A stretch of DNA of 64,000 nucleotides from an uncultured Acidobacteriota bacterium. Lineage in GTDB: Bacteria > Acidobacteriota > Polarisedimenticolia > J045. The stretch spans positions 1,821,800-1,885,799 of the forward strand of contig CAWDCL010000004.1 in NCBI GenBank assembly GCA_963800865.1, written 5' to 3'. The notes beneath the pieces were generated by a model. It searched no databases and was not told where the DNA came from. It saw only the letters and a list, made by a program, of their open reading frames with translations. Every line of letters starts with the position of its first letter. Position 1 is the stretch's first letter. Shown here one piece after another: positions 2,886 to 37,112 of the stretch. A program made the position numbers and the translations under genes.

Positions 2886-3102
2886 GGCGGGGATCCTCGT
2901 GGCGCGCCGTGCGGCCGGGGAGGCGCCCGGCGGGCGTGCTGTCGTCATCGAGAGGGAGTTGGCGCATCTCTTCCTGGGCCGCCCGGTTCCGCCGGAGGAA
3001 GGTCCAGACGACGATCGCCAGGAAGGCCAGGATCGAGACGATCAGCCCCCACTCCGCGAAACCGGTGAAGCCGGAGCCGCTCATCAGGTCGGAGAGGCTC
3101 AT
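2878..3102 (-). CDS. ccoQ: CcoQ/FixQ, small cbb3 oxidase membrane subunit
   Basis: 74-aa ORF (MSLSDLMSGSGFTGFAEWGLIVSILAFLAIVVWTFLRRNR...) with a single TM helix. Its ATG overlaps the ccoNO stop (TGATG). It is not listed separately in the ORF track because it sits inside a spurious long ORF. Confidence 0.7.
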   Translation of the reverse strand: MSLSDLMSGSGFTGFAEWGLIVSILAFLAIVVWTFLRRNRAAQEEMRQLPLDDDSTPAGRLPGRTARHEDPRHV

Positions 3103-5414
3103 CAGTGCGTTCCCGCGGGGGCGGGTGCGGCGCCGGCGGCCGGGTCGACGGTGGGCGATCCGGGAGCGGCCTCGGCCTGGGCCGGCGCCGGCGGGGCGGC
3201 CGGGGGCTCGCCCGGCGGCGGCAGGTTCTTGATGTCGGTCCCCAGCCGCTGCATGTAGGCCACCAGCGCGATCACCTTCCGGTCCTCGAGCCCCTTCGGC
3301 CCGCCCTGCGCGACGATCGCCTCGGAGATCTTCGCCGCCTGGGCCCGCGCCGCGTCGATCCCGCCCGCGATGTCGGCCTCGCCGTAGGGGACCCCCAGCG
3401 TGCGCATCGCCTTCATGTGGGCCGGGATCGAGCCGAAGTCGAGCGGCGACGCCAGCAGCCACTGGTAGCGCGGCATGATCGACTGCGGCGTCGTGGAGCG
3501 CGGGTTCTCGAAGTGGCGGACGTGCCAGAGGTCGGGGTACTTGCCGCCCACCCGCTGCAGGTCCGGCCCGATCCGGCGCGAGCCCCACTGGAAGGGGTGG
3601 TCGTAGACCGACTCGCCCGGCTTGGCGTACTCGCCGTAGCGCAGCACCTCGGCGTAGATCGGCCGCACCTGCTGGGAGTGGCAGTTGTAGCACCCCTCCG
3701 CCAGGTAGATGTCGCGGCCCGCCAGCTCGAGCGGCGTGAACGGCTTGACCGAGGCGATCGTCGGGACGTTCGCCTTGATCGTGAAGAGCGGAACGATCTG
3801 GAACAGCGACGCGGTGATCACCGCGACCGCGACCCAGACCGTGAAGACCAGCGGCAGCCGCTCCCAGCGGCCGTGCCAGCCGGCGGAGGCGAAGCGCTCG
3901 AGCTTGTAGGCGAAGTTGGTGACGTGGGCCCCGGTCGAGCGCAGGTAGGACGGCCGCGGCGCCGGGTCGACGTAGTGCCTGGCGAGCGCCGGAGCCTCGT
4001 AGACCGGGACCTCGTAGCGTGCGGGGCGCCGGGTCCAGGTCATCACGCCGTTGACGACGCACATGATCGCGCCGACCAGGTAGAGCGTGCCGCCGACGAC
4101 GCGGACCCAGTACATCGGGATCAGCTTCATCGTGGTCTCGATGAAGTCGGGGTAGGCCAGCTGGCCGGTGTCGGTGAAGGCCCGCCACATCAGGCCCTGG
4201 GTCAGGCCGGCGGCGTAGATCGCCACGATGTAGAGCAGGATCCCGACGGTCGCGATCCAGAAGTGGACCTCGGCCCACTTGCGGCTCCACAGCTCGGTCT
4301 GGAACAGCCGCGGGAAGAGCCAGTAGAGCATCCCGAAGGCCATGAAGCCGACCCAGCCCAGCGCGCCGGCGTGGACGTGGGCGATCGTCCAGTCGGTGTA
4401 GTGCGAGAGCGCGTTGACGCTCTTGATCGAGAGCAGCGGCCCCTCGAAGGTCGACATCCCGTAGAAGGTGATCGCGACCACGAAGAACTTCAGGACCGGG
4501 TCCTCGGTGACCTTGTTCCAGGCGCCGCGCAGGGTCAGCAGGCCGTTGATCATCCCGCCCCAGGAGGGCATCCAGAGCATCACCGAGAAGAGCATCCCCA
4601 GCGTCGAGGCCCAGGCCGGCAGCGCGGTGTAGTGCAGGTGGTGCGGCCCGGCCCAGATATAGATGAAGACCAGCGACCAGAAGTGCAGGATCGACAGCTT
4701 GTAGGAGTAGACGGGGCGGTTCGCGGCCTTGGGCAGGAAGTAGTACATCATCCCGAGGATCGGCGTCGTCAGCAGGAAGCCGACCGCGTTGTGGCCGTAC
4801 CACCACTGCATGAAGGCGTCCTGCACGCCGGGGTAGATCGAGTAGCTCTTCAGCCAGCCGGCGGGGACCGCCAGGCTGTTGAAGATGTGCAGCAGCGCGA
4901 TCGTCACCACGGTCGCGATGTAGAACCAGATCGCGACGTAGAGGTGCCGCTCGCGGCGGACCGCGATCGTGCCGAAGAAGTTGACCGCGAAGATCACCCA
5001 GACCAGCGCGATCACGATGTCGATCGGCCACTCCAGCTCGGCGTACTCCTTCCCCGACGTGACGCCGGCCAGGAGCGTCACCGCGGCGGAGACGATGATC
5101 AGCTGCCAGCCCCAGAAGTGGAGCCGGCCGAGCGTGTCGTTCCACATCCGCGTCCTGAGCAGGCGCTGCATCGAGTAGTAGACGCCGGCAAAGATCGCGT
5201 TCGCGGTGAACGCGAAGATGACCGCGTTGGTGTGCAGCGGGCGCAGCCGGCCGAACGACAGCCACGAGGTGGCGAAGTTGAAGGCCGGGTTGGCCAGCTG
5301 CAGCGCGGCGATCACGCCGACCAGCATGCCGACGACGCCCCACAGCATCGTCGCCCAGACGAACATCCGGACGAGGCCGTCGTCGTAGGAAAAGCGTTCC
5401 AACCGTTCGCTCAT
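3102..5414 (-). CDS. ccoNO: Fused CcoN-CcoO (cbb3-type cytochrome c oxidase subunits I+II)
   Basis: 770 aa. The N-terminal ~480 aa is a haem-copper oxidase subunit I with 12 TM helices and conserved His ligands (HNAVGF, HHLHYTA, HVHAGALG). The C-terminal ~250 aa is a CcoO mono-haem domain with CYNCHS. Fused NO proteins are known in several phyla. Confidence 0.9.
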   Translation of the reverse strand: MSERLERFSYDDGLVRMFVWATMLWGVVGMLVGVIAALQLANPAFNFATSWLSFGRLRPLHTNAVIFAFTANAIFAGVYYSMQRLLRTRMWNDTLGRLHFWGWQLIIVSAAVTLLAGVTSGKEYAELEWPIDIVIALVWVIFAVNFFGTIAVRRERHLYVAIWFYIATVVTIALLHIFNSLAVPAGWLKSYSIYPGVQDAFMQWWYGHNAVGFLLTTPILGMMYYFLPKAANRPVYSYKLSILHFWSLVFIYIWAGPHHLHYTALPAWASTLGMLFSVMLWMPSWGGMINGLLTLRGAWNKVTEDPVLKFFVVAITFYGMSTFEGPLLSIKSVNALSHYTDWTIAHVHAGALGWVGFMAFGMLYWLFPRLFQTELWSRKWAEVHFWIATVGILLYIVAIYAAGLTQGLMWRAFTDTGQLAYPDFIETTMKLIPMYWVRVVGGTLYLVGAIMCVVNGVMTWTRRPARYEVPVYEAPALARHYVDPAPRPSYLRSTGAHVTNFAYKLERFASAGWHGRWERLPLVFTVWVAVAVITASLFQIVPLFTIKANVPTIASVKPFTPLELAGRDIYLAEGCYNCHSQQVRPIYAEVLRYGEYAKPGESVYDHPFQWGSRRIGPDLQRVGGKYPDLWHVRHFENPRSTTPQSIMPRYQWLLASPLDFGSIPAHMKAMRTLGVPYGEADIAGGIDAARAQAAKISEAIVAQGGPKGLEDRKVIALVAYMQRLGTDIKNLPPPGEPPAAPPAPAQAEAAPGSPTVDPAAGAAPAPAGTH

Positions 5415-5863
5415 GAGCTCTCCGTGGTCTTCGTTCCATTCTGCAGGGAAACGGGCCGCGCCCCGCTGCGCGCCAGCAGGCGCCGCACGGCGGGGCTGGC
5501 CAGGGCCAGGCTGCGCGGGACGGCGAGCAGGTCGCAGGCCGCGCTGACGACGACGTCCTTCGTCGAGGGGAGTTCCAGCTCCTCGAGCGGCGGCACGAGC
5601 GCGGGGAGGCCGCCGGACTCGACGCCGGGGGGGGCGGGGCCGCCGCGCGGGCGGGCGGCCGGGTCCTCGAGCCGCAGCGCGCCGCCGAGCAGGACGAACA
5701 GGCCGGGCGGGAAGTGGCCCGCGTAGAGCAGGACCTGGCCCGCCGTCCCGGAGACCCGGCTCACGTCGGGGAGGCGCGACAGCTCGTCCAGCGCCGTGCC
5801 GGCTTCGAGCCGGTCGGCACCCGGTGCGCTGCGCGCGCGCGGTCCCCGCGGGGCGGCTCTCAT
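5411..5863 (-). CDS. Small putative cyclic-nucleotide-binding-domain protein encoded immediately upstream of ccoNO with an ATGA overlap
   Basis: 150-aa ORF with a degenerate cNMP-binding signature (...GLFVLLGGALRLED...EELELPSTKDVVVSAACDLLAVPRSLAL...). Its stop overlaps the ccoNO ATG, which suggests translational coupling. The FNR box lies ~65 nt upstream of its ATG. Support is weak because the composition is typical of GC-rich sequence. Confidence 0.4.
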   Translation of the reverse strand: MRAAPRGPRARSAPGADRLEAGTALDELSRLPDVSRVSGTAGQVLLYAGHFPPGLFVLLGGALRLEDPAARPRGGPAPPGVESGGLPALVPPLEELELPSTKDVVVSAACDLLAVPRSLALASPAVRRLLARSGARPVSLQNGTKTTESS

Positions 5864-5937: not shown

Positions 5938-6029
5938 GTTCCGGCGGCATCATGGGCGCCTCCCGCCGCCCCTCGCCCCGACCTCCCGGGGGAGCGGATG
6001 CGCAAGCGGGACGGCGGCGCTCGGTCCGG

Positions 6030-6782
6030 ATGCCAAGGAAGCCCAAGGGGATGCGTGGCGGCACCCAGCCGCTGCGGCCGACCGCGTGCCTCGCCTGCGA
6101 AGCCCGCGGGACGACCGAGTGGTGCGGCCTGCCGGAGGATGACGTCCGGCTTCTCAGTCAGTCCAAGGTGAGCAACGTCTACCGGCCGGGGCAGGTCGTC
6201 TTCTACCAGGGGCAGCCGTGCCTCGGCCTGCACTGCATCGAGTCCGGGACGGTCGCGCTGCGCAAGACCGACGCGCGGGGCGACTCGGTCATCGCGCGGC
6301 TGTTCCACGGCGGCCAGACGCTGGGCTACCTGGCCTACTTCGCGCGGCGTCCCTACACCGGCACCGCCGAGGCGGTCACGGAGTGCCGGATCTGCTTCAT
6401 CGACAAGGCGGCGGTGCGGACGATCGTGTCGCGCAACCCGGGGGTCGCGCAGCGCTTCCTCGGCCGGATCGCCGACAACCTCTCCGAGGCCGAGGACGCG
6501 CGGCTTGCCGCCTCGACCCTCCCGCTGCGCTCGCGCCTGGCCGAGCTGCTGGTCGCGGTCCGCGACCGCTTCGGCGCGGCCGGAGAGGACGGGACGATCA
6601 CGCTGCGGCTGCCGCTCTCGCGCCAGGACATCGCGGCGATGCTCGGCGCGCGGCCGGAGAGCCTCTCGCGCGCGATCCGCGAGCTGTCCGACGCGGGGGT
6701 GGCGGTCTTCGACGGCCGCGACGTGACGATCCCCGACCTCGACGCGCTGATCGACGAAGCGGAGCAGGCGGGGGGCGCGTGA
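6030..6782 (+). CDS. fnr: Crp/Fnr-family transcriptional regulator, FNR-type with an N-terminal Cys cluster
   Basis: The likely start is ATG 6030 (MPRKPKGMRGG...). There is an N-terminal Cys cluster (CLACEARGTTEWC), a cNMP-binding domain, and a C-terminal HTH (RQDIAAMLGARPESLSRAIRELSDAG). It is divergent from the cbb3 operon and shares the FNR box with it. Confidence 0.8.
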   Translation: MPRKPKGMRGGTQPLRPTACLACEARGTTEWCGLPEDDVRLLSQSKVSNVYRPGQVVFYQGQPCLGLHCIESGTVALRKTDARGDSVIARLFHGGQTLGYLAYFARRPYTGTAEAVTECRICFIDKAAVRTIVSRNPGVAQRFLGRIADNLSEAEDARLAASTLPLRSRLAELLVAVRDRFGAAGEDGTITLRLPLSRQDIAAMLGARPESLSRAIRELSDAGVAVFDGRDVTIPDLDALIDEAEQAGGA

Positions 6783-8653
6783 CGGCGCCGCCGGGCGGGC
6801 GCGGCGCGGGCGCGCTGCTCGCGGTCGCGCTGCTCGTCGCGCTGCTGGCGGGGGTCGCGTACCGCGGCGCGCTCGGCGCCGGGTGGATCTGGGACGACCG
6901 GCTGGTCGTGACGCAGCAGCTGCCCCGGTTTCACGGTGTCCGCGATGCCTTCTTCCCGGCCGGCGACGTGCCGCGCCTCGTGCCCCAGTACTACCGGCCG
7001 GCGGTCATCCTCTCGTGGCTGGTCGATGACGCCCTGGCCCGCCGCGCCGTCGGCGCACCGGGCGATTCCGGCGCGGCGCTCGACGGGGCGTCCGAGCGGC
7101 CGGTCGACGAGGCGCTCGACGGCGCGCGGCAGCGTGCGTTCCACCGGACGAACCTGCTGCTGCATGCGTCGAACGCGGCGCTCGTGGCCCTGCTGGCCGC
7201 GGCGCTGGCGGGCCTGGCTCCCGCGCCGTCCGCCCGCCGGCTCGCGATCGCGGCGGGGGCCGGAGCGCTGTTCGCGATCCATCCGCTGGCGGCCGAGCCG
7301 GTGACCTGGGCCGCCGGACGCTCGGATCTCCTCATGGCGCTGTTCGTCCTCGGCGCGCTGCTCTGCTTCGTGCGCGGGATCGCGCGGGGCGATCGGCTGG
7401 CGCTGGTGGCCGCGGGGGTTCTCTACCTGCCGGGCCTGCTCTCGAAGGAGTCGGCGCTCGGCGCGCTGTCCGCGTTCGCGCTGCTGGCGCTGGCCCGGCG
7501 CGACCCGGCGTCCGGCCCGCCACCGGCGCCGCGGCCCCTCGCCGCGCTCCTCCCGCTGGGCGCTGCGGCCGCCGTCTACGCGATCCTGCGCGGCGCCGCG
7601 GCGGGAGCGTCCGCCGTACCCCCGGTCGCGCCGGCGGCGGGCCGCCTTGCCGACGCGCTCGCGGTGCTCGGCTGGAGCGTCGAACGCGTGCTCTGGCCGT
7701 TTCCGATGGAGGTCTTCGTCGTCGACGTCGACTCCATCCCCCGCGCCGCGCTCGGCGCGGCGCTCGTCGCGGCCTGCTCGGCTGCGGTCGTGATGTTCGT
7801 CCGGCGCGGCGGCGGCTGGACGGTGCCTGCCGTCGCAGCGTCGCTCTTCCTCGGGCCGCTGCTCCCGCCGCTCGCGACGCTGGCCGGGGAGCTTTCCCCG
7901 GTGATCGCGGCGGAGCGCTACCTCTACCTCCCGCTGGCGGGATTCGCGATCGGCGTGACGTTCCTGCTGGCGGAAATCGGTGCGCGTTATGTGCCGGCGC
8001 GCGCCGCGCCCTGGCTGCCGGCTGCCGCGCTCGCGTTCGTCCTCGTTCCGGCGTGGCGCGTGACGGAAGCGAGGGTCGCCATCTGGTCCAGCGAGGAGCG
8101 GCTCTGGACGCTGGCGGTCGAGCAGGCGCCCGGGAGCCTGTTGCCGCAGCTCAACCTCGGGCTCGCGTACGACCGGTCGGGACGCGCCGACGAGGCGATC
8201 GCCGCGTATCGCCGCGCGGTGGAAGGGAAGGGGACCGATCGCGGCCGGGCGCTCGCCTTCTCGCACCTCGGCGCCGCGCTGCTGGCGAAGGGCGACCTTC
8301 CGGGCGCTGTCGCGGCGCTGTCGCAATCGGTTGCGCTCGATCCGCGCGCGGCCCGCACCCAGTACAACCTCGCCCACGCCCTGGTCCGACAGTCGGACCG
8401 CGTCGCGGATCGGGCGGCGCGCGACAACCTGCTTCAGGCCGCGCTCCCGCACTTCGAGGCCGCGCTCGAGAGCGACTCCGGCTACGTCCTGGCGCGTTTC
8501 CACTACGGCGACGTGCTGGCGCGCCTGGGCCAGGTGGACGCCGGGATCGCCGCGCTGGAAGAGGGCCTGGCGCGCGCGCCGGATCACTCCCAGGCGGCGC
8601 AGGCGCGGCGCCTGCTCGAGCGGCTGCGACGGGGAAGCAACGTAAGTCGGTAA
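6779..8653 (+). CDS. Multi-pass membrane protein with a C-terminal TPR repeat domain (GT-C/PMT-like membrane domain plus TPR, TMTC-like)
   Basis: The probable GTG start at 6779 overlaps the fnr stop. The N-terminal ~420 aa has many TM helices and a WIWDD motif in the first loop. The C-terminal ~200 aa has TPR-like repeats (LGLAYDRSGRADEAIAAYRRAV..., YNLAHALVRQ...). The N-terminal 190 aa of the track ORF is an artefact. Confidence 0.65.
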   Translation: MTAPPGGRGAGALLAVALLVALLAGVAYRGALGAGWIWDDRLVVTQQLPRFHGVRDAFFPAGDVPRLVPQYYRPAVILSWLVDDALARRAVGAPGDSGAALDGASERPVDEALDGARQRAFHRTNLLLHASNAALVALLAAALAGLAPAPSARRLAIAAGAGALFAIHPLAAEPVTWAAGRSDLLMALFVLGALLCFVRGIARGDRLALVAAGVLYLPGLLSKESALGALSAFALLALARRDPASGPPPAPRPLAALLPLGAAAAVYAILRGAAAGASAVPPVAPAAGRLADALAVLGWSVERVLWPFPMEVFVVDVDSIPRAALGAALVAACSAAVVMFVRRGGGWTVPAVAASLFLGPLLPPLATLAGELSPVIAAERYLYLPLAGFAIGVTFLLAEIGARYVPARAAPWLPAAALAFVLVPAWRVTEARVAIWSSEERLWTLAVEQAPGSLLPQLNLGLAYDRSGRADEAIAAYRRAVEGKGTDRGRALAFSHLGAALLAKGDLPGAVAALSQSVALDPRAARTQYNLAHALVRQSDRVADRAARDNLLQAALPHFEAALESDSGYVLARFHYGDVLARLGQVDAGIAALEEGLARAPDHSQAAQARRLLERLRRGSNVSR

Positions 8654-8697: not shown

Positions 8698-9718
8698 CTA
8701 GTGCTGCGCCGCCGCCCGCCGGAGCCGGTCGTTGATCGCGTGCCCGAGTCCTTCCTCGGAGGGGAAGGGCTCGGCGATGATCGCGTCGAGCCCGGCCTCG
8801 TCCAGCTCGCGCAGCGCGCCGAAAAGGTGCCGCGCCGCCTCGACCGGGTCGGTGCCGAGGACCTCGACCGCCGCCGCCCCGGCCGGAACCGCGCCGCCGA
8901 AGAGCAGCACGCCGAAACGGCCGTCGCGCGCCGCCATCCAGGGCCGCGGCTCGAGCAGGACGGGCGTCCGTGGCGCGTAGTGGCTCTCGAGCTGTCCCGG
9001 AGCCGTGACCGGTCCGACCGACCGGCGCTCGCCGAGAGGGCCGCCCAGCACCGCCTCGAGCTCTTCGCGCCCGAGCCCGCCGGGCCGCAGCACGGTTGCA
9101 TTTCCCGAAGGATCGATCGCCACGACCGTCGACTCGAGCCCGACCTCGCACGGCCCGCCGTCCAGCACGAGTCCGATCCGGTCGCCCAGCTCGGCGGCGA
9201 CGTCCTCGGCCCGGGTCGGACTGATCCGGCCGAAGCGGTTCGCGCTGGGCGCGGCCAGCGGGACGCCGACCGCGGCGATCAGCGCCTGCGCCACCGCGTG
9301 CCGCGGCGCGCGCACGGCGACCGTCATCAGGCCCGCGGTCACGATGTCCGGGACGCGCGGCGCCTTCGGCAGCACGACCGTCAGCGGCCCAGGCCAGAAG
9401 GCGGCGAAGAGCGCGTCCGCCGCGCGGCACGCGTCGTCGCCCAGGGCCGCCGCGTCGACCAGCCCGAGCGCCGCCAGCGCCTCGACGGAGCGCGCAGCGT
9501 CCAGTCACGTGCACGATCAGCGGGTCGAAGCGCGGCCGATCCTTGACCGCGAAGACCCGCGCCACCGCCCGCTCGTCGAAACAGCACGCGGCCAGCCCGT
9601 AGACCGTCTCGGTCGGCATCCCGACCGGCTCGCCGCGCCGCAACGCTTCGACCGCGAGGCGGATCGCCTCGGGGGTCGGCGCCAGGATCCGCGCGCGCGC
9701 GCCGGGCCCGCGGTCCAC
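8698..9718 (-). pseudogene. tsaC: L-threonylcarbamoyladenylate synthase (Sua5/TsaC/YrdC family) gene interrupted by a frameshift near 9505
   Basis: The N-terminal YrdC motif (MPTETVYGLAA...DRPRFDPLIVHV) is in one frame (9507..9718; possible GTG start at 9718, 14 nt after the aspA stop). The continuation (LDAARSVEALAALGLVD...AFWPGPLTVVLPKAPRVPDIVTAGL...SANRFGRISPT... plus the Sua5 C-domain) is in the frame shifted by +1, with an in-frame TGA at the junction (CACGTGACTGG). Confidence 0.8.
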
Positions 9719-9729
9719 GCTCGGGCCGC

Positions 9730-11607
9730 TCAGCGCGCGCCGTCGCGCGGCAGCATCGGCCGCGGGCGGGTCATCGCCTCGGGGCTGAGCAGCTCGTCCA
9801 GCTCCCGCTCCGCGATGTAGCCGCGCGCCAGCACCAGGTCGCGCACCGGCGTCCCGGTCAGCAGCGCGTCGCGCGCGATCTCGCTGGCCCGCTCGTAGCC
9901 GAGCGCCGGGACCAGCGCGGTCACGATCCCGATCGAGTGCTCGACCATCGCCCGGGTGCGCTCGGGGTGGGCCTTGATCCCGCGCAGGCACAGCCGCTCG
10001 AGGGTGTCGATGGCCGAGGTCAGCATCTCCATCGACTGCAGCAGGTTGTAGGCGATGATCGGCTCCATCACGTTGAGCTGGAGCTGCCCGGCCTCCGCTG
10101 CGAGCGTGATCGCGAGGTCGTTCCCGATCACCTGGAAGGCGACCTGGTTGACGACCTCCGGGATCACCGGGTTGACCTTCCCCGGCATGATCGACGAGCC
10201 GGGCTGGACCGCCGGCAGCTCGATCTCGGAGAGGCCGCAGCGCGGCCCGGACGAGAGCAGGCGCAGGTCGTTGCACATCTTGGAGAGCTTGACCGCGACC
10301 CGCTTGATCACCCCCGAGAAGAGCACGAAGGCCCCGGTGTCGGGGGTGGCCTCGACGAGGTTCTCGGCCCGCACCAGGTCGAGCCCGGAGATCTTCCGCA
10401 GCTCTTCGATCGCGAGCTGCGGGTAGCGCGGGTCGGCGTTGATCCCGGTCCCGATCGCGGTCCCGCCGAGGTTCAGCTCGAGGAACAGCCGGACCGCCTC
10501 GCGCAGCCGCGCGATGTCCTCGCCGGTCGTGACCGCGAAGGCCCGGAACTCCTGGCCGAGCGTCATCGGCACCGCGTCCTGGAGCTGGGTGCGGCCCATC
10601 TTCAGCACGGTCCCGAACTCGTCCGCCTTGGCGTCGAGCGTGTCCTTCAGCCGCTCCAGCGCGGCCACCAGCCCGCGCAGCGTGAACTGCGTGGCCAGCC
10701 GCAGCGCGGTCGGGTAGACGTCGTTGGTCGACTGCGAGAGGTTGACATGGTTGTTGGGGTGGCAGCCCGCGTACTCGCCGCGCGCCTGCCCGAGCAGCTC
10801 CAGCGCGCGGTTGGCGATCACTTCGTTGGCGTTCATGTTGGTCGAGGTCCCGGCCCCGCCCTGGACCATGTCGACGACGAAGTGGCCGTGGAAGTGGCCG
10901 TCGACGATCTCCTGGCTGGCGCGGTCGATCGCCGCCGCGACCTCGGGGGAGAGCAGGCCCAGCTTGCGGTTCGCCCGCGCGGCGGCCTGCTTGACCATGG
11001 CCATCGAGCGCACCAGCGCCGGGAAGTGCGACAGCCGGATCCCGGTGATCGGGAAGTTCTCGACCGCGCGCAGCGTCTGGATCCCGTAGAGCGCGTCCTG
11101 CGGGACGTCACGCTCGCCGAGCAGGTCGTGCTCGCGGCGCGTGCCGCCGGAGGCGTAGGCCTTGGCGAGCCCGACCTCGCGCGAGCTGGCGTAGGTCAGG
11201 CGGCGCGTCATCAGCCGGCCGATCCGCCCCAGGACCTCCCACGCCGCCGCGCCGTCCTCGGCCAGCGCGGTGCGCAGCGCCTCGCGCGTCAGCTCGACGA
11301 GCGCGACCCGGCCCAGCGCGCGGGCGGAGGCCGAGTGCGGCGCGTCCGAGAACATCGCCCCCTCGCCCAGCGCCTCCCCTTCGCCCATCACGATCAGCGG
11401 CTCGACGTTGCCGTGGTGCTCGCGGAAGACCTCGAGCTGGCCGTCGGCGATCAGGTAGAGCGCCTCGCGCGGCGTTCCCTGGTGGAAGAGGATCTCGCCC
11501 GGCACGAGCGCGCGGTGCCGGGCGGCCGGCGCGAGCCGGGCCAGGATCTCCTCGGGGAGGTCCTTGAATTGCGGGAACCCGCGCAGGCGGGAGAGGATGT
11601 CGTCCAT
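9730..11607 (-). CDS. aspA: Aspartate ammonia-lyase (aspartase/fumarase class II family) with an N-terminal ~150-aa cyclic-nucleotide-binding domain fusion
   Basis: The C-terminal ~470 aa has the GSSIMPGKVNP signature loop and HFVVDMVQGGAGTSTNMNANEVIANRALELLG, which is aspartase-like. The N-terminal domain (MDDILSRLRGFPQFKDLPEEIL...GEGEALGEGAMF...SASARALGRVALVELTREAL) matches the cNMP-binding fold. 625 aa, compared with ~470 for typical AspA. Confidence 0.8.
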   Translation of the reverse strand: MDDILSRLRGFPQFKDLPEEILARLAPAARHRALVPGEILFHQGTPREALYLIADGQLEVFREHHGNVEPLIVMGEGEALGEGAMFSDAPHSASARALGRVALVELTREALRTALAEDGAAAWEVLGRIGRLMTRRLTYASSREVGLAKAYASGGTRREHDLLGERDVPQDALYGIQTLRAVENFPITGIRLSHFPALVRSMAMVKQAAARANRKLGLLSPEVAAAIDRASQEIVDGHFHGHFVVDMVQGGAGTSTNMNANEVIANRALELLGQARGEYAGCHPNNHVNLSQSTNDVYPTALRLATQFTLRGLVAALERLKDTLDAKADEFGTVLKMGRTQLQDAVPMTLGQEFRAFAVTTGEDIARLREAVRLFLELNLGGTAIGTGINADPRYPQLAIEELRKISGLDLVRAENLVEATPDTGAFVLFSGVIKRVAVKLSKMCNDLRLLSSGPRCGLSEIELPAVQPGSSIMPGKVNPVIPEVVNQVAFQVIGNDLAITLAAEAGQLQLNVMEPIIAYNLLQSMEMLTSAIDTLERLCLRGIKAHPERTRAMVEHSIGIVTALVPALGYERASEIARDALLTGTPVRDLVLARGYIAERELDELLSPEAMTRPRPMLPRDGAR

Positions 11608-11676
11608 GAGGGCCTCGGGCCGGCGGGCTGTCGCCGGGCGGCGATTCTAGACTCGGGGACTGGAAAGGGGACACTC

Positions 11677-12882
11677 GTGCGGTTCCTTTACGAGCGCGAG
11701 CCGGCCCTGCGCGAGTGCGAGGCCGAGGTCGTCGAGACCGGTGAGACCGGGGGGCGCCCCTTCGCCGTGCTGTCGGACACGATCTTCTACCCCGAAGGGG
11801 GCGGGCAGCCGGCCGACCGCGGGACGCTGGCCGGGGTCCCGGTGCTCGACGTCCAGCGCGTCGGGGAGGCGATCCGTCACATGCTCGAGCGCCCGGTGGC
11901 TCCCGGCCCGGCGCGGCTGGTGCTCGACTGGGCCCGGCGCTTCGATCACATGCAGCAGCACACCGGGCAGCACCTCCTGAGCGCAATCGCCGAGGACCGC
12001 TTCGGCTGGCGCACGACGGCGTTCCACCTCGGGCCGGCCGTCTCCGATGTCGAGCTCGACGTCGCCGCGCTCGCAGCGGGCTCCCGGGAGGCGCTCGAGG
12101 AGGCGGTCGCGGCCGCGATCCGCGCGGCCCGGCCGGTCCGGGCGCTGCGTCTCTCCCGCGAGGACTTCGACAGGCTCCCCTCCGTGCGCACGCGCGGGCT
12201 GCCCGAGGGGCACGCCGGCGACGTGCGGCTGGTCGAGATCGAGGGGATCGACCTCAACACCTGCGGCGGGACGCACCTGGCGAGCACCGCCGAGATCGAG
12301 TCGCTGGCGCTTCTGGCGACCGAGCCGATGCGCGGCGGGACACGCGTCCATTTCGTCGCCGGGGGTCGGCTGCGCCGCCGGCTCGGGTCGCACGAGGAGC
12401 GCAATGCGCGGCTGCGGGGGCTGCTCGGTGCCCCGGAGGATGCGTTCGCGGCAACGCTCGAGGCGAAGCTCGAGCAACTGCACGGCGCCGAGCGGCGCGT
12501 GCGGCACCTCGAGCAGGAGCTGGCCGAGGCGGCGGCGACGGCGCTCGCGGCGGCGGCGGCGGTGGCCGGAGAGCGGGTGGCGGCGGCGCACTTCGGCGAG
12601 CGTGACGCGGCTTTTCTCGGCGCCGTCGCGCGCGCGCTGTCGCAGGCGCCCGGCGCGACGGTCGTGCTGCTCACCGCCGGCCCCGGGCCGACCGGCCCCT
12701 TCGTGCTCGCCGCCGGCGCCGATTTCGCGGGCGACCTTCCTGCCCTGGGCCGGCTCGTCGCGGAAGGGCTCGCCGGTCGCGGCGGCGGCAGCGGGCGGAT
12801 CTTCCAGGGGAAGGCGGAGCGGATCGACCGGCGCGATGCCGTGCGCGCGGCACTGCTCCGGGCGCCGGGTGGCGCGCCGTGA
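11677..12882 (+). CDS. alaX: Alanyl-tRNA editing protein AlaX-L-like (AlaRS second-additional/editing domain with HxxxH...CxxxH zinc motifs)
   Basis: The GTG start at 11677 is preceded by GGAAAGGGG. The HTGQHLLSA and CGGTHL motifs are characteristic of the AlaRS/ThrRS editing (SAD) domain. It is ~400 aa. The rest of the 981-aa track ORF is an artefact. Confidence 0.7.
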   Translation: MRFLYEREPALRECEAEVVETGETGGRPFAVLSDTIFYPEGGGQPADRGTLAGVPVLDVQRVGEAIRHMLERPVAPGPARLVLDWARRFDHMQQHTGQHLLSAIAEDRFGWRTTAFHLGPAVSDVELDVAALAAGSREALEEAVAAAIRAARPVRALRLSREDFDRLPSVRTRGLPEGHAGDVRLVEIEGIDLNTCGGTHLASTAEIESLALLATEPMRGGTRVHFVAGGRLRRRLGSHEERNARLRGLLGAPEDAFAATLEAKLEQLHGAERRVRHLEQELAEAAATALAAAAAVAGERVAAAHFGERDAAFLGAVARALSQAPGATVVLLTAGPGPTGPFVLAAGADFAGDLPALGRLVAEGLAGRGGGSGRIFQGKAERIDRRDAVRAALLRAPGGAP

Positions 12883-24653: not shown

Positions 24654-25859
24654 TCAGCGACCGAGCAACCCGATCAGCTTCGACGTGGCGCGGAAGAGCA
24701 GCCCCTGTCCATCCTTCGCCTCGCTCCCGGCACCCGCTGCATCCGCGGCGGGCTCCCCCGGGGTGCCGCTCGCGGCGGCCGGCGTCTTCGCGGGCGCCGG
24801 CGCGGGGGGCGCCGGCGGGTTGAGGCGCGCCTGCAGCCGGTCGGTCATCTCCGCCAGGTAGCGCCGCCAGGTGAGCAGGCGGCGGGCGGCCTCGCGGTCG
24901 GTTCCGCCCGAGTCGACCGCGCGCGTGAGGGCCTCCTCGGCCCGGGCTTCGACCAGCGCGAGGATCCGGCGATCGTGCTCGAGCGTCGCGCGGTCGCCCT
25001 GCGGCAGGTCGCGCCGCACCAGCGAACTGGCCGCCCAGATCTCGAGGTAGAGCGGGTCGCCGGGCCGGGCCTTGCCCTCGCGCGCCGCGCCGAGCAGCGA
25101 GACGGCGTCGTCGAGCGGCGGCGGCTCCTGGTGCGCGTTGCGCGCCGCGTCGCCGCGCGCGACCTCGACCAGCGCGGCAGCCGCGCGGGCCAGGTCGGCT
25201 TCGGCCGTCAACTCGAGCGGGTCGGGCAGCAGCGCGAGCCCGGCGGCGATCGCCTCCGCGCCGCGCGGGGTCGGGGCCGACTGCAGTACGAAGCGGATCT
25301 CGCCCGCGACCTCGGCCAGCCGCGACCACTCGTGCGCGCGAGTGGCCAGCGCCAGCGCGTCGAGCGGGGCGTCCGGTCCCAACCGCCGCAGGCGGCGCAT
25401 CCGCTGGCGCACGGCGACGGAACGCGTCAACGCGTCGCGCAGCCCGAGGTCGGGAACCTGGTTCCGCGAGCCGAGCAGCCGCGCGAGGTCGCGCACTTCC
25501 ATCGGAGCCGGATCGGGCCAGAGCCGCAGTCCGATCTGCTCGGTGAAGCTGATGCTCCCGACCGGCAGCGACCCCAGCACGAGATCGAGCGCCTCGAGCG
25601 CCGCGCTTTTGGCGCGTCCCTGGGGCGTCGGTATCTCCGCCGACTGCGAGCCGACGGCGATCGTCCCGCGCGGGACGGCGGCGCGGCGCGACGGCAGCGG
25701 GAGGGCGCCCGTGTCCTCAGCCGCGGGGGCGGGTGGAGCGGGCGAGGCGGGGAGGACGCCGGCCGGGCCGGGCGCTCCGGGGCGCAGGACGGGCCGGGCC
25801 GGCCGGGGCGTCACGCCGGCACCGATCGTCTCCCGCCAGTATTTCTTCGAGTCGGCCAT
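24654..25859 (-). CDS. Hypothetical protein (401 aa), Ala/Pro/Arg-rich, no recognised domain
   Basis: The ORF has an ATG (MADSKKYWRE...) and is divergent from the spmAB-like gene. Its reality is supported only by length and position. Confidence 0.4.
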   Translation of the reverse strand: MADSKKYWRETIGAGVTPRPARPVLRPGAPGPAGVLPASPAPPAPAAEDTGALPLPSRRAAVPRGTIAVGSQSAEIPTPQGRAKSAALEALDLVLGSLPVGSISFTEQIGLRLWPDPAPMEVRDLARLLGSRNQVPDLGLRDALTRSVAVRQRMRRLRRLGPDAPLDALALATRAHEWSRLAEVAGEIRFVLQSAPTPRGAEAIAAGLALLPDPLELTAEADLARAAAALVEVARGDAARNAHQEPPPLDDAVSLLGAAREGKARPGDPLYLEIWAASSLVRRDLPQGDRATLEHDRRILALVEARAEEALTRAVDSGGTDREAARRLLTWRRYLAEMTDRLQARLNPPAPPAPAPAKTPAAASGTPGEPAADAAGAGSEAKDGQGLLFRATSKLIGLLGR

Positions 25860-32713: not shown

Positions 32714-33441
32714 GCGCCGCCGGAACCGGGGGCCGTCGCGGCGGCGAGGTCCGCGACCACGCGCTCCGCGGCCGCGCGCGGGTCGTCGGCCTTGACGATC
32801 GGCCGCCCGACCACGATGTGGCTCGCGCCGCCGCGCACCGCCTCGGCCGGCGTCGCGACGCGGGCCTGGTCGCCGTGCGCCTCGCCCGGCAGCCGGATCC
32901 CCGGCGTCACCAGCCAGAAGCCGCCGCCCAGCTCGCGCCGCAGCCGCGGCGCCTCGAGCGCGCTGGCCACCAGGCCGTCGGCCCCGGCTTCCAACGCCAG
33001 CCGCGCCAGCCGCAGCGCGTTGGTCTCCGGGTCGTCGGAGGCCAGCCCCAGCGAGGCCAGGCTCCGCGCGTCGTGCGAGGTCAGCACCGTCACCGCCAGC
33101 AGCTGCGGCCGGGCCGCGCCACAGGCCTCCGCCGCCTCGCGCGCGGCCGCGATCATCTCGCCCCCGCCGAGCGCGTGCAGCGTCGTGAAGCGCACGCCCA
33201 GCGTTCCGGCCGAGCGCACCGCCGCGGCGGCGGTGCGCGGGATGTCGTGGATCTTGAGGTCGAGGAAGATCGACGCGCCGCCGGCGCGCGCGGCCTCGAC
33301 CGCGGCCGGGCCGTGCGCGACGAACTGCTCCAGCCCCACCTTGAAGACGCCGACCTTGCCGGACAGCGCCGTTGCCAGCGCGCGGGCGCCGGCGAGGTCC
33401 GGCACGTCGAGTGCCACGACCAGTCGATCGACCGGGTTCAT
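32710..33441 (-). CDS. pyrF: Orotidine 5'-phosphate decarboxylase
   Basis: ATG 33441 (MNPVDRLVVALDVPDL…FLDLKIHDIP…). The start overlaps the pyrD stop. Confidence 0.85.
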   Translation of the reverse strand: MNPVDRLVVALDVPDLAGARALATALSGKVGVFKVGLEQFVAHGPAAVEAARAGGASIFLDLKIHDIPRTAAAAVRSAGTLGVRFTTLHALGGGEMIAAAREAAEACGAARPQLLAVTVLTSHDARSLASLGLASDDPETNALRLARLALEAGADGLVASALEAPRLRRELGGGFWLVTPGIRLPGEAHGDQARVATPAEAVRGGASHIVVGRPIVKADDPRAAAERVVADLAAATAPGSGGA

Positions 33442-34352
33442 GCCTGGTTCCCCTTGACCGCTCCGACGAGCGCGTTGACGTCCTCGACGCCGTGCGCGGC
33501 GCACCAGGCCGCGAGGTCGTCGACGATCCGCATCGCCACGCCGGGGTCGTTGAAGTTGGCGGTGCCCACCTGCACCGCCCGCGCGCCGGCGAGCAGGAAC
33601 TCGACCACGTCGCGGGCGTTGACGATCCCGCCCATCCCGACGATCGGGATCTTCACCGCCTTGAACACCTGGTGGACCATCGCGATCGCCACCGGCCGGA
33701 TCGCCGGGCCCGAGAGTCCTCCGGTCCCGCGGTGCAGCACCGGCCGCCGGCGCTCGACGTCGATCACCATCCCGACCAGCGTGTTGATCAGCGAGACCGC
33801 GTCGGCCCCGCCCGCCTCGGCGGCCAGCGCGGTCTCGGCGATGCTGCTGACGTTCGGCGTCAGCTTGACCCACAGCGGCTGGCGCGTGATCGCGCGCGCG
33901 TCCCTGGTGATCGCCTCGATCGCCGTCGGCGAGCGTCCGAGCTCGAGCCCCCCCTCCTTCACGTTGGGGCAGGAGAGGTTCAGCTCGACCGCCGCGATCC
34001 CGCTCTCCTTCGCCAGCCGCTCGACGACGTGGAGCAGGTCCTCCTCGCACTGGCCGTAGACGTTGACCACGGTGGCTACGCCGCGCTCGCGCAGGGCGGG
34101 GAGTTTCTCCTCGAGGAAGCGGTCGATCCCGACGTTCTGCAGCCCGATCGCGTTGAGCATCCCGGACGGCGTCTCGACCAGCCGCGGCGGCGGGTTGCCG
34201 GCGCGCGGCTTCGGTGAGATCCCCTTGACGACCACGCCGCCGAGCCGGTTGAGGTCGAGGTACGGCTCGAATTCCAGCCCATACCCGAAGGTGCCGCTCG
34301 CGGTCAGGACCGGGTTTCGAAGCACGAGGCCGCCGCCGACGGCGACCTCCAT
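33438..34352 (-). CDS. pyrD: Dihydroorotate dehydrogenase catalytic subunit (class 1B)
   Basis: ATG 34352 (MEVAVGGGLVLRNPVLTASGTFGYG…NLSCPN…). The upstream 63 aa of the track ORF is an artefact. Confidence 0.85.
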   Translation of the reverse strand: MEVAVGGGLVLRNPVLTASGTFGYGLEFEPYLDLNRLGGVVVKGISPKPRAGNPPPRLVETPSGMLNAIGLQNVGIDRFLEEKLPALRERGVATVVNVYGQCEEDLLHVVERLAKESGIAAVELNLSCPNVKEGGLELGRSPTAIEAITRDARAITRQPLWVKLTPNVSSIAETALAAEAGGADAVSLINTLVGMVIDVERRRPVLHRGTGGLSGPAIRPVAIAMVHQVFKAVKIPIVGMGGIVNARDVVEFLLAGARAVQVGTANFNDPGVAMRIVDDLAAWCAAHGVEDVNALVGAVKGNQA

Positions 34353-34366
34353 CCGAACCGCCGCGC

Positions 34367-35221
34367 TCACAGCACGATCTCCCGCGCGTCGAAGACCGGC
34401 CCTTCGGTGCAGACCCGCACGAAGCGGTCGAAGTCGCTCTCCGGCTGGCGCTTCTCGACGACGCAGCCGAGGCAGACGCCGAAGCCGCAGGCCATCGTCT
34501 CCTCCATCGCCACCTGGCAGGGGACGGCGCGCGCCAGGCACAGCTCGGCCACCGCGCGCAGCATCGGGTGGGGCCCGCAGGCCATGACCAACCGGCGCCG
34601 GCCGGGGTCGGCGTCGAGGTGCGCGGCGAGCGGCACCGTGACGAAGCCGTGGTGCCCGTGCGAGCCGTCCTCGGTCGCGGTCACGACGCGGCCGGTCCTG
34701 CGCTCGAACCAGTCGAGCAGCGTCAGGTCGTGCCGGGTGCGGCCGCCGAAGAAGAGCGTCGTCCGCGCGGCACGCGGGCCCAGCTCCTGGAGCAGGAGCG
34801 GGAAGATCGCGTTTCCGATCCCGCCCGCGACCAGCAACAGCTCGGTTTCTTCGCCGCCACCGCCGTCCCCTGCAACCGGGTCCGGGATCCAGAAGCCGCG
34901 CCCGAGCGGTCCCAGGAGCGCGAGTTCGTCTCCCGGCTGGAGCCGGCTGAAGAGCGTGGTACCTCGCCCGACGACCTTGTAAAGCAGGCCGATCGAAACG
35001 GGATCGCCCCGGCCCGGCTCGCCGCCGTGCGGCTCGGGTGACACGAGCGCGACGGAGAAGGGTCGGCGGATCAGCATCTGGTCGATGTCGGTCAAGCCGA
35101 TCATCACGAACTGCCCGGCACGGATCTCGCGCGCGATTTCCGGCGCGCTGAGCGTGAGGAGGTGGTAGCCGGCGCCGAGATCGTCCTGGCGCTCGACGGC
35201 AGCGGTCAGGTTGTAGGGCAT
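34367..35221 (-). CDS. pyrK: Dihydroorotate dehydrogenase electron-transfer subunit (FAD/NAD-binding, 2Fe-2S)
   Basis: Ferredoxin-reductase-like fold with a C-terminal Cys cluster (CGFGVCLGC…C). Confidence 0.8.
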   Translation of the reverse strand: MPYNLTAAVERQDDLGAGYHLLTLSAPEIAREIRAGQFVMIGLTDIDQMLIRRPFSVALVSPEPHGGEPGRGDPVSIGLLYKVVGRGTTLFSRLQPGDELALLGPLGRGFWIPDPVAGDGGGGEETELLLVAGGIGNAIFPLLLQELGPRAARTTLFFGGRTRHDLTLLDWFERRTGRVVTATEDGSHGHHGFVTVPLAAHLDADPGRRRLVMACGPHPMLRAVAELCLARAVPCQVAMEETMACGFGVCLGCVVEKRQPESDFDRFVRVCTEGPVFDAREIVL

Positions 35222-35260
35222 GCCGGGATATTACCAGTTATCCTCCCCCTGACACCGCCG

Positions 35261-37018
35261 ATGAAGCTCAAGCGCCGCATTGCCGAGGGGTTCCGGCCCT
35301 TTCTCTGGCTGCTCGCCGACGCGGCCGTGGTGGCGGCGATCGCCTGGCCCGCCGCCGCGCTGCTGCTCTTTCTCGTCAACCCGGAGCTGCCATTCACGCC
35401 GGGCGGCTTCTTCGCGACGATGGGCGCCATCCTCCCGCAGGCGCTGCTGGTCTTCGTGCTGGCCGGCCCGCTGCTCGTCCTGCTCGGCAACGCCTTTGCC
35501 GTCGGACGGTCCTCGACCCGCGGCTTCCGGGTCCGGCACATCGTGCGCTTCGCCGTCCTGGACGCATTCCTGCTCTGGCTTGCCGCCTTCGACCAGTGGC
35601 GCGTGACGGGGCCGCTGCTCCCCGACGCGACACGGGCGGCACTGGCGATCACGGTCAGCGCGCTGGGCGCGGCCACGGTCGTGGCGCTCGGCTTCGTCGT
35701 GATGGACGCGCGCCGGCCCGGCTCGGTCCGGTCACCGTGGATCGTCGCGCTGGCGGTGGCGGTGCTCGTCGCGCTGGCGGGCGCGGGGGACATGCGGCGG
35801 GTGCGCTTTCCGGACCCGGCCCCGATCGACATCCGCGGGTTCGCGGCGGAGCGGCCGCTGATCCTGTTCGAGGTCCCCGGGCTGTCGCTGGAGGCGCTCG
35901 AGGGGTACGCCGAGCGCGGGACCGCGCCCGCGCTGGAGTCGCTGCTCACGAGCGGCAGCGTCATGACGGTCTCCGGCGGGATCGTCGAGGAGCCGCTCGC
36001 GCTGCACGCCACGCTCATCACCGGACGCGGCCCGGAGCAGCACCGCGTGCTCGGGCCGCTGCGTTATCGGCCGCGCGGGGGAGGCGGCGGCGTCTCGTTC
36101 GGCATCCTGCCCCGGGGCCTGCTGTTCTGGCCGTCCCTGAAGCTCGGGCTCTGGGACGCGGTGCCGGTCTCGGCCCCGGCTCTGCGCGCCGTCTCGGTGG
36201 CCGGGATCGCGCGCGCGCTGGGCCTGCCGGTGGCAATCGTCGGCGACCCGCTCGCCGGCCGGCCGCCCAACCCGGAGTCGGTCATCGTGCCGACGGACGC
36301 GCTGGGTGCGGGACAGACGGTTGCGCTCGGAGCCGCCGGCAGCGTGACCTGCGTCGACGCCGGGCCGATCGGCGACCGGTTCTTCGATCCTCCGGCGGGC
36401 GAGCTGCCGGGGACGCGCCGGCTCGAGGCGCTCGTCCGGGCGGCGCTGGATGCCGACCTCTGCGCCCTGGCGGTCGGCAAGCAGCTGGCCGCGACGGGCC
36501 GCTTTGCGCTGGTCCACGTGCGGCTCGGGGGGCTCGAGCGGATCACGCGCCAGTTCGCGGGCTGGCAACCCGGGAGCACGGCGCGCGGCGCTTCGGACCG
36601 GGAGATCGAGGCCTACGGCCGGGTGCTCGCGCGCTACGTGCGCCAACTCGACCCGGCGGGCGGTGAACTGGTCTCGGCCGGGCCGCCCGGGGCGCTCGTG
36701 GCCCTGGTTTCGCCCTGCGGCGTCGTGCCGCGCAACGACCTGGGCCGGTTGGCGGAGGCGCTGGCCGGAATCTCGGGACCGACCGCGAGCACCGACGGGC
36801 CGCCGCCGGGTTCGCTGATCCTCGCCGGCGCCGGGGTCGTTCCGGGGGGGCACCGCGCGGGTGAGATCGCGCTGGAGTCGGTGCTGCCGACGCTGCTCTG
36901 GGGTGCCGGGCTGCCCGCCGCCGCCGACATGGGGCCGATCGCGACCCAGGCCTTCGAGCCCGAGTACGTCGCCGCGCACCCGGTGATCGGCGTGCCCAGC
37001 TACGGGAAGCGGCGCTAG
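35261..37018 (+). CDS. Hypothetical integral membrane protein (N-terminal ~5 TM helices plus a large extracytoplasmic domain)
   Basis: ATG 35261 (MKLKRRIAEGFRPFLWLLADAAVVAAIAW…). No confident family assignment. It is divergent from pyrK with a 39-nt AT-rich spacer. Confidence 0.5.
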   Translation: MKLKRRIAEGFRPFLWLLADAAVVAAIAWPAAALLLFLVNPELPFTPGGFFATMGAILPQALLVFVLAGPLLVLLGNAFAVGRSSTRGFRVRHIVRFAVLDAFLLWLAAFDQWRVTGPLLPDATRAALAITVSALGAATVVALGFVVMDARRPGSVRSPWIVALAVAVLVALAGAGDMRRVRFPDPAPIDIRGFAAERPLILFEVPGLSLEALEGYAERGTAPALESLLTSGSVMTVSGGIVEEPLALHATLITGRGPEQHRVLGPLRYRPRGGGGGVSFGILPRGLLFWPSLKLGLWDAVPVSAPALRAVSVAGIARALGLPVAIVGDPLAGRPPNPESVIVPTDALGAGQTVALGAAGSVTCVDAGPIGDRFFDPPAGELPGTRRLEALVRAALDADLCALAVGKQLAATGRFALVHVRLGGLERITRQFAGWQPGSTARGASDREIEAYGRVLARYVRQLDPAGGELVSAGPPGALVALVSPCGVVPRNDLGRLAEALAGISGPTASTDGPPPGSLILAGAGVVPGGHRAGEIALESVLPTLLWGAGLPAAADMGPIATQAFEPEYVAAHPVIGVPSYGKRR

Positions 37019-37112
37019 CCACACCCCCCTTTGGACAGCGCGCGGGGGAGACGATAGTCTCGCCCGACTTCGCGCCCGGAACGGTCCGCCCGGGACGCGC
37101 GGCGGAGGCCGG

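Follow-up and report, generated by a model that had tools for sequence, protein, structure and literature searches.

A cyclic-nucleotide-binding-like domain fused to a predicted aspartate ammonia-lyase, with a family-specific histidine/arginine pocket signature

The DNA analyzed here (the window) is a stretch of 64,000 nucleotides with a G+C content of ~75% from an uncultured Acidobacteriota bacterium (assembly GCA_963800865.1, contig CAWDCL010000004.1, positions 1,821,800 to 1,885,799). At 9730..11607 (-), stop codon included, it carries a gene for a 625-aa protein in which a domain of the cyclic-nucleotide-binding (CNB) fold, referred to below as the sensor, is joined to an aspartate ammonia-lyase (aspartase) core. 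The open reading frame (ORF) begins with ATG at 11605..11607 (-), and a possible Shine-Dalgarno-like sequence, GAGG, can be read 5 nt 5' of it (11613..11616, -). Three Pfam domains lie in this one frame: cNMP_binding (PF00027; residues 33-117, 11257..11511, profile positions 3-88 of 89, 66.2 bits with a cutoff of 27.5, E=2.6e-18), Lyase_1 (residues 164-495, 322.3 bits, cutoff 27), and FumaraseC_C (residues 561-614, 73.5 bits, cutoff 32.5). An earlier note on this DNA, made from the letters alone, had described a 625-aa ORF at this position encoding a cyclic nucleotide (cNMP)-type domain and a complete aspartase in a single polypeptide. The ORF list and the domain search that the note had suggested, in which PF00027, Lyase_1 and FumaraseC_C all matched above their cutoffs, agree with this description. 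The motif strings it quoted are present, the Crp-like ones (GEGEALGEGAMF...SASARALGRVALVEL) at residues 75-106.

The nucleotide sequence indicates that the N-terminal part is translated and selectively maintained. In one and the same frame, the third-position G+C content (GC3) reaches 0.98 for residues 1-137 and 0.99 for the core. In a comparison with the 93%-identical homolog P0001 (locus L001), the sensor has a ratio of nonsynonymous to synonymous substitution rates (dN/dS) of 0.22, the connector one of 0.11, and the core one of 0.12, and the gene is colinear with this homolog and with ~200 further fusion proteins. From the ATG to the beginning of the aspartase, M133 is the sole in-frame start codon, and no in-frame ATG, GTG or TTG was read in the sequence between M133 and the first core residue. 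A promoter scan of 9300..12000 detected no sigma-70-like promoter, including none inside the gene.

The same three Pfam domains were found in 119 of the 120 best homolog clusters, with lengths of ~620-625 aa, and a second search, seeded with an Ignavibacterium-type member, recovered the same architecture in 120/120 homolog clusters. A species-level scan, in which one genome per species was searched with a profile of residues 1-175, returned 80 loci, all of which were verified. The figure of 339 genomes from that scan may include unfused aspartases, because the last ~20 residues of the query belong to the aspartase core, and the counts given here rest on the 80 verified loci. In 80/80 loci, the sensor and the junction are covered by a single continuous tblastn high-scoring segment pair (HSP), which also includes the whole core save at contig ends or where the HSP was cut short. 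By the labels of their metagenome-assembled genomes (MAGs), 23 loci belong to Acidobacteriota, 24 to Bacteroidota, 17 to Ignavibacteriota/Kapabacteria, 4 to Gemmatimonadota, and 4 to Zixibacteria/GN15; the remainder are 1 from Rhodothermaceae, 4 from proteobacterial or desulfobacterial bins, and 3 others, the last two groups being possibly mis-binned. The carriers span at least 6 phyla, and the search for the same fusion in related taxa, another suggestion of the earlier note, succeeded among clusters and loci alike. The nearest relative is an uncultured Acidobacteriota MAG with an identical local gene order. The family also has a cultured carrier, the type strain Ignavibacterium album JCM 16511, whose 622-aa protein (AFH50349.1, WP_014561490.1, UniProt I0AMZ2) is 55% identical to the window protein over residues 14-616. 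Nearly all of these proteins are named simply "aspartate ammonia-lyase" in the databases, and one is named "Fumarate hydratase class II" (P0316).

The core (residues 156-616, 9760..11142, -) is assigned by sequence to the AspA-type aspartate ammonia-lyases, which would interconvert L-aspartate with fumarate and NH4+. The NCBIfam model NF008909 (PRK12273, aspartate ammonia-lyase) scores 724.8 bits over residues 156-616, well above its cutoff of 510. The cutoff of the aspA equivalog model TIGR00839 is missed by 14.5 bits (666.7 vs 681.2), so that the assignment to AspA is based on the subfamily model together with the PDB comparison. The fumC models score 420-480 bits against cutoffs of 665-840 (479.7 vs 664.75 for the equivalog). 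In the PDB sequence comparison, the aspartases 3oce, 6wng, 1j3u and 1jsw score 513-577 bits, and class II fumarases at most 392. The AlphaFold2 (AF2) model compared with those aspartases by Foldseek gives a template modelling (TM) score of 0.93 at 51-61% identity, and aspartases hold ranks 1-19.

The SS loop GSSIMPGKVNP (residues 470-480, 10168..10200, -) is invariant in an alignment of 32 fusions (32/32) and nearly so in a 74-sequence alignment (74/74), in which V478 is nearly invariant; the segment GSSIMPGKVN (residues 470-479) conforms to the superfamily pattern GSSxMPxKxN. This loop is the catalytic serine loop of the aspartase/fumarase superfamily (AspB/FumC). QGGAGTS (residues 249-255, 10843..10863, -), the aspartase-type signature of conserved region 1, does not vary in either alignment and recurs unchanged in 3oce, the Brucella aspartase-like structure. 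The motifs QGGAGTS, KMGRTQLQDAVPMTLGQEF and GSSIMPGKVNPVIPEVVNQ are presumably all of the aspartase type. The stand-alone aspartases of known structure (Escherichia coli AspA 1JSW, Bacillus sp. YM55-1 AspB 1J3U/3R6V, Elizabethkingia 6WNG, and Brucella 3OCE) match residues 156-616 end to end. They share the SS loop and the signature motifs with the fusion, and the homotetrameric lyase chemistry is presumably common to them. Unlike the fusion, none of the solved stand-alone aspartases has an N-terminal extension. PDB chains align to at most ~466 of the 625 residues in Foldseek, and the fusion is therefore without any solved structure.

The sensor (residues 1-137, 11197..11607, -) consists of an N-helix, an eight-stranded beta-roll, the phosphate-binding-cassette (PBC) helix, and the B and C helices, as recognized with Pfam, PDB and AF2. 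Both AF2 models show the canonical CNB topology with the PBC helix at residues 82-85. The other helices are predicted at residues 19-28, 108-115 and 119-137, and strands at 29-34, 39-41, 49-55, 58-64, 67-74, 94-97 and 101-107, with a predicted local distance difference test (pLDDT) score of 76-95. The PDB sequence matches of the sensor are the CNB domains of PKG, PKA-R, CRP-family regulators, and Bd1971. The PBC-like segment (residues 74-98, MGEGEALGEGAMFSDAPHSASARAL, 11314..11388, -) is the most conserved segment of the sensor, with a mean entropy of 1.55 bits against 2.2-2.6 in the rest, and its family consensus is F-L-G-E-G-[AS]-L-M-D-D-[SY]-P-H-S-T-S-A-R-A. In a non-redundant set of 95 sequences, E82 is conserved in 96%, G56 in 100%, and H91 in 100%. 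Among 120 close and 80 distant members, the Gly-Glu pair that contacts the ribose 2'-OH is retained (G81 in 99/120 and 75/80; E82 in 115/120 and 76/80), as is the Ser/Thr-Ala of the cassette, and A84 remains Ala or Ser.

The canonical arginine of the cassette (CRP R82, PKA RIalpha R209), which clamps the cyclic phosphate, is replaced. In the HMMER alignment to CNB-A and CNB-B of PKG I, the query GEGAMFSDAPHSASA is placed on GELAILYNCTRTATV and GEKALQGEDVRTANV, and His91 (codon CAC, 11335..11337, -) falls in the column of that arginine. All of the close homologs (120/120) and all of the species-level loci (80/80), whatever their phylum, have His there. As a background, 428 other CNB domains were collected by searching 50%-identity representatives with the N-terminal domain as query; of these, 72% have Arg at this position, 11% have Tyr, and 5% have His; a search of such representatives is unsuited to sizing the family itself, which it collapses to few representatives. 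A second residue distinguishes the family. Arg47 (codon CGC, 11467..11469, -), placed in the beta2-beta3 loop by the AF2 secondary structure, is Arg in 185 of 190 family members and in 97% of the non-redundant set, and in 0/428 of the background domains, where Gly dominates the column. H91 and R47 together are a family-specific pocket signature. The position next to R47 in the loop, E48, is equivalent to D170 of PKA RIalpha, which contacts the PBC arginine. The R47 side chain could therefore plausibly reach the phosphate site, where a relocated arginine might substitute for the lost one.

His is found at the PBC-arginine position in 23 of the 428 background domains (e.g., PHSTSAVA and PHSTTARA; among P0131..P0234). 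Each of the 23 belongs to a large multi-CNB protein and lacks Arg in the R47 column. A broader, uncharacterised "His-type" subclass of CNB domains may exist.

By Pfam score and by fold, the sensor is a CNB domain. The arginine that defines cNMP receptors is absent, and the domain is therefore filed here as CNB-fold or CNB-like, and annotation as a cNMP receptor should be avoided. The fusion protein has no match to HTH_Crp_2 or another Crp DNA-binding helix-turn-helix (HTH) domain in Pfam. FNR-like Fe-S sensing was considered and excluded, because no cysteine is conserved: the N-terminal domain of the window protein has no Cys, and 93 of the 190 family members have none in theirs.

The sensor is linked to the core by a connector (residues 138-155, 11143..11196, -) recognized from its spacing and conservation. 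Exactly 21 residues separate R136 at the end of the C-helix from R157, the first core residue, in 186 of 190 sequences. R135, R136, Y151, G154 and T156 are conserved at 87-96%, with Y151 at 94% and G154 at 92%. Fixed spacing with conserved residues is the pattern expected of a mechanically coupled link and a single fusion origin, rather than of a floppy tether.

Direct allosteric control is the natural reading of this arrangement, because the translated single-polypeptide fusion recurs across homologs. The protein is thus probably a ligand-gated allosteric aspartase with a re-wired CNB pocket, as suggested by analogy with other CNB-regulated enzymes. In such an enzyme, a small molecule would bind in the beta-roll pocket of the sensor, and the binding would reposition the PBC and the B and C helices. 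Via the connector, the movement would reach the lyase tetramer at its N-terminal domain, and the aspartase activity would be switched, probably through relief of autoinhibition. The binding of a small molecule and the allosteric gating of the lyase are proposed by analogy with mycobacterial Pat and Bdellovibrio Bd1971, and the direction of regulation and the identity of the ligand are likewise inferences. The pocket appears to be in use rather than part of a decayed domain, because the PBC is the most conserved segment and G56, E82 and H91 stand at 96-100%. Most likely, judging from the conserved residues, it is functional but re-wired: the Gly-Glu and Ser/Thr-Ala elements are retained, H91 takes the place of the arginine, and R47 is new. 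The effector would therefore be either a cyclic nucleotide held in a non-canonical manner by R47 and H91, or another anionic metabolite or a nucleoside.

Sensor-enzyme fusions with CNB domains are already known as a kind. Like the fusion, mycobacterial Pat (Rv0998, MSMEG_5458) has an N-terminal CNB domain joined to an enzyme, which in Pat the domain regulates allosterically. Pat carries the canonical PBC arginine and binds cyclic AMP (cAMP). Its output is a GNAT acetyltransferase and not a lyase, and the NCBIfam Pat model NF058543 matches the CNB part of the query only (residues 14-102, 26.4 bits vs a cutoff of 460, E=2.7e-06); the fusion is an analogue in logic and a non-member. Bd1971, with a CNB domain and an EAL phosphodiesterase (PDB 6HQ2-6HQ7), is likewise a bacterial enzyme with an N-terminal CNB sensor, and its CNB domain (6hq3-6hq7) is among the PDB sequence matches of the sensor (E ~7e-08). 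It has been reported to bind cAMP with a canonical cassette; its output, unlike that of the fusion, is the hydrolysis of cyclic di-GMP. Crp/FNR factors, including the regulator encoded at 5952..6782 in the window, share with the fusion a CNB-fold effector domain and a long C-helix. The fusion differs from them in that it has neither an HTH nor a conserved Cys cluster, and its output is an enzyme. Members of the FNR type often carry His where CRP has R82. The fusion protein is thus neither a Crp/FNR regulator nor a Pat homolog. The regulation known for AspA enzymes involves no fused sensor: substrate and Mg2+ act at a site inside the lyase, and there is transcriptional control.

Two other groups show what may follow from the loss of the PBC arginine. 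The CBD insertion of family 2B encapsulins (Streptomyces griseus EshA/Sg Enc) resembles the sensor as a CNB fold on a protein that is not a transcription factor, with the PBC arginine replaced family-wide, and the NCBIfam encap_f2b model matches residues 7-118 of the query (E=1.5e-09). In these encapsulins, the arginine is replaced by Trp, the pocket residues are poorly conserved, and cAMP binding has been excluded experimentally (PMC11550324); the fusion has His instead of Trp, and its cassette is the best-conserved part of the domain. The regulatory subunits of trypanosomatid PKA (6FLO, 6HYI) keep the Gly-Glu ribose contacts, lack the PBC arginine, and bind a non-cyclic ligand; the structures 6flo, 6h4g and 6ftf are among the PDB matches of the sensor. 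They bind nucleosides, and the switch needs an Ala-to-Glu substitution that clashes with the phosphate (PMC10959531). The fusion keeps Ala or Ser at this position (A84) and adds R47, and its pocket would therefore be more, not less, suited to an anion than that of trypanosomatid PKA. More widely, loss of the PBC arginine in CNB-like domains, of which CNB2 of Plasmodium CBP-O is another example (PMC12422582), is taken to mean that the domain no longer responds to cAMP or that it has switched ligand, other ligands often being bound (PMC11550324, PMC10959531, PMC12422582).

Several observations weigh against the interpretation of the protein as a ligand-gated aspartase. Loss of the PBC arginine has been linked to lost cAMP binding in other CNB-like domains (PMC11550324). 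The sensor is less conserved than the core, with a median identity of 38% vs 75%. In both AF2 monomer models, the connector (residues 137-154) has a pLDDT below 50 and the predicted TM score (pTM) is 0.69-0.70, and therefore no docked interface between sensor and core is predicted; with a deeper alignment of 74 sequences, the connector pLDDT is still below 50 and the pTM 0.70. All-against-all clustering of ORFs in 81 loci revealed no conserved neighbour beyond lineage-level synteny, and thus no hint of pathway or ligand. Neither a nucleotide cyclase gene nor a phosphodiesterase gene was found within +-10 kb in the closest relative or among 20 further genes of the window, a result that has no bearing on the rest of the genome. 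Full-text literature searches found no paper describing a CNB-aspartase fusion. The architecture is visible to any domain database; the aspartase as output domain, the broad distribution and the invariant His/Arg47 signature appear undescribed so far.

A narrower form of the ligand-gated interpretation, tentative although possible from the sequence, is that the pocket with the swapped H91 and R47 represents a new CNB ligand class, in which an effector other than a cyclic nucleotide gates aspartate deamination. The candidate effectors would be a dicarboxylate (2-oxoglutarate, fumarate, malate, or aspartate) or a nucleoside or nucleotide. If so, this gating would operate across many kinds of bacteria, mostly anaerobic fermenters of amino acids, with Acidobacteriota, Bacteroidota, Ignavibacteriota, Gemmatimonadota and Zixibacteria as carriers so regulated, and post-translational control by a metabolite would stand in place of the transcriptional control by CRP and FNR of the E. 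coli type. Few bacterial enzymes are known to be under direct control by a CNB domain, a classic allosteric module. Aspartase is a node linking amino-acid catabolism, ammonium release, and the fumarate supply for anaerobic respiration, and a built-in sensor would mean post-translational switching of this node in several phyla that are abundant in the environment and poorly studied. The family-wide replacement of Arg by His, together with a newly fixed loop Arg, is a concrete case of re-tuning of a CNB pocket, and cautions against annotating such domains as cAMP or cyclic GMP (cGMP) receptors by homology. A cultured carrier, I. album JCM 16511 (I0AMZ2), makes the biochemistry directly feasible.

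The earlier note had proposed direct allosteric control of the enzyme by a second messenger of the cAMP/cGMP type. Allosteric control, as the natural reading of the fusion, is upheld, while a cAMP or cGMP effector is called into question by H91 at the PBC-arginine position. That the sensor is a canonical receptor placing the enzyme under the direct control of a 3',5'-cyclic nucleotide is rather doubtful; this would be an overlapping special case of the ligand-gated interpretation, within which the new effector class falls as well. The PF00027 match is significant, the best PDB sequence matches (PKG, PKA-R, and CRP-family proteins) are genuine cGMP- or cAMP-binding domains, and the PBC retains Gly-Glu-x-Ala and Ser/Thr-Ala, with A84 in place of the phosphate-excluding Glu of kinetoplastid PKA. 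The His, aided by R47, could in principle still form a hydrogen bond with the phosphate. There is also a precedent in E. coli, where transcription of aspA depends on CRP-cAMP and FNR. Against these points, the phosphate-clamping Arg is His in 200/200 members, and the sampled gene context holds no cyclase. Many carriers are MAGs of Bacteroidales and Ignavibacteria, in which, to our knowledge, cAMP signalling is poorly documented. Moreover, CBD-like domains without the PBC arginine have been reported not to be cAMP responsive (PMC11550324, PMC12422582).

An improbable alternative is that the CNB-like domain binds no ligand and has a structural role, in oligomerisation, localisation or constitutive modulation of the tetramer, as in the KCNH channel homology domains. 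The lost arginine, the low conservation of the sensor relative to the core, and the lack of a confident sensor-core interface in AF2 would all fit this role, and CNB homology domains that are ligand-free or hold an "intrinsic ligand" are precedents (cited in PMC11550324). However, conservation within the sensor is highest in the PBC, where the polar residues E82 and H91 stand at 96-100%, and the family-specific R47 comes in addition; pocket residues fixed across at least 6 phyla are unexpected for a purely structural domain, and the length of the connector is invariant.

It is very unlikely that the core acts in vivo as another member of the superfamily, whether a class II fumarase or a lyase that acts on some related amino acid or dicarboxylic acid. 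The shortfall in TIGR00839 (14.5 bits under the trusted cutoff of 681.2), the annotation of P0316 as a fumarate hydratase, and the deposition of the top PDB match, 3oce, merely as "fumarate lyase:delta crystallin" could be taken in its favor; PRK12273 is exceeded (724.8 vs 510) where the fumC models stay far under their cutoffs (420-480 vs 665-840), solved aspartases outscore fumarases (513-577 vs at most 392 bits), and QGGAGTS, KMGRTQLQDAVPMTLGQEF and GSSIMPGKVNPVIPEVVNQ are motifs that we take to be of the aspartase type.

An artefact of gene calling, with initiation at M133 or M202 and the upstream part a small separate gene or an untranslated leader, has next to no chance of being correct: the 493-aa database homolog P0026 begins at the equivalent of M133 but lies, most likely in truncated form, on a contig of 1.8 kb, and although frame breaks in the downstream Sua5 gene suggest that the assembly may contain indels, the fusion is ruled in by the in-frame GC3 of 0.98 and dN/dS of 0.22 over the N-terminal part, the 80/80 continuous ORFs (51-93% identity) without stop or frameshift at the junction, the lack of an in-frame start codon from M133 to the core, and the absence of an internal promoter-like site from the scan. 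The internal Met considered in the earlier note (~MAMVKQ, residue ~202) falls inside Lyase_1, and therefore cannot be the natural start of an aspartase.

On its two sides, the fusion gene has an AlaX-like tRNA-editing gene, which is divergent, and a Sua5/TsaC gene, which is co-directional and beyond which lie a Crp/FNR regulator gene and then a ccoNOQP-ccoGH cluster. In the 81 clustered loci, the neighbours are generic families at variable distances, such as histidine kinases and response regulators (25), ABC ATPases (20), and LeuRS (8). With no conserved neighbour, the fusion gene behaves as a stand-alone unit. In the Bacteroidales loci L022, L025, L027, L032, L039, L066, L076 and L079, one or two convergent large genes of the histidine-kinase/response-regulator type (~650-990 aa) lie ~200-270 bp 3' of the fusion gene; this synteny is lineage-specific and absent in Acidobacteriota. 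A PF04199 "Cyclase" match in the relative belongs to a family of the kynurenine-formamidase type and not to the nucleotidyl cyclases.

The Sua5/TsaC gene (8698..~9640, -), for N6-threonylcarbamoyladenosine (t6A) synthesis, is directly 3' of the fusion gene and is split over two frames, with the N-terminal ~70 aa (ILAPTPEAIRLAVEALRRGEPVGMPTETVYGL...IVHV) in one and the remainder (ORF 8698..9375) in another. The Sua5/TsaC gene of the relative L081 is likewise split, ~25 codons further on. These independent break points suggest indel errors of assembly in G+C-rich runs, and not a shared pseudogene.

The earlier note had also placed an FNR-type regulator and a second cNMP-domain ORF in the window. 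The former was found at 5952..6782 (+), with cNMP_binding and HTH_Crp_2 matches in Pfam. The latter was not confirmed: the ORF at 5411..5863 (-), of 150 aa, has no Pfam match at E<=0.01, the sub-threshold cNMP_binding match reaching E=0.27 and 11.6 bits vs 27.5, and hhalign gives a probability of 2.9% against a CNB profile. The ORF is coding-like (GC3 0.93), its stop overlaps the start of ccoNO, and an ORF of 151 aa lies at the same place upstream of ccoNO in the relative. One possibility for its product is an accessory protein of the cbb3 oxidase cluster that is CNB-like but highly diverged. The adjacent 770-aa ORF (3102..5414, -) resembles a natural CcoN-CcoO fusion of the cbb3-type oxidase. 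Its orthologue in L081 has both PF00115 COX1 and PF02433 FixO; FixQ, FixP, FixG and FixH come after it.

The Crp/FNR regulator ORF (276 aa, 5952..6782) overlaps an 811-aa TPR/membrane-protein ORF (6218..8653) in another frame (together 5952..8653, +). At 12908..15625 of L081, a single 905-aa product contains cNMP_binding, HTH_Crp_2 and TPR repeats. Either a real fusion has been disrupted in the window by an indel, or the product in L081 is a mis-call.

Two further ORFs, 24654..25859 (-) of 401 aa and 35162..37018 (+) of 618 aa, show coding-like GC3 and match no Pfam family at E<=0.001. A further aspartate-consuming pathway in the window, with no evident connection to the fusion gene, is represented by a pyrimidine-biosynthesis cluster (33438..40037), which comprises a pyrD-like dihydroorotate dehydrogenase gene (33438..34541, -) and genes for a PyrR-like phosphoribosyltransferase, aspartate carbamoyltransferase and dihydroorotase (37113..40037, +).

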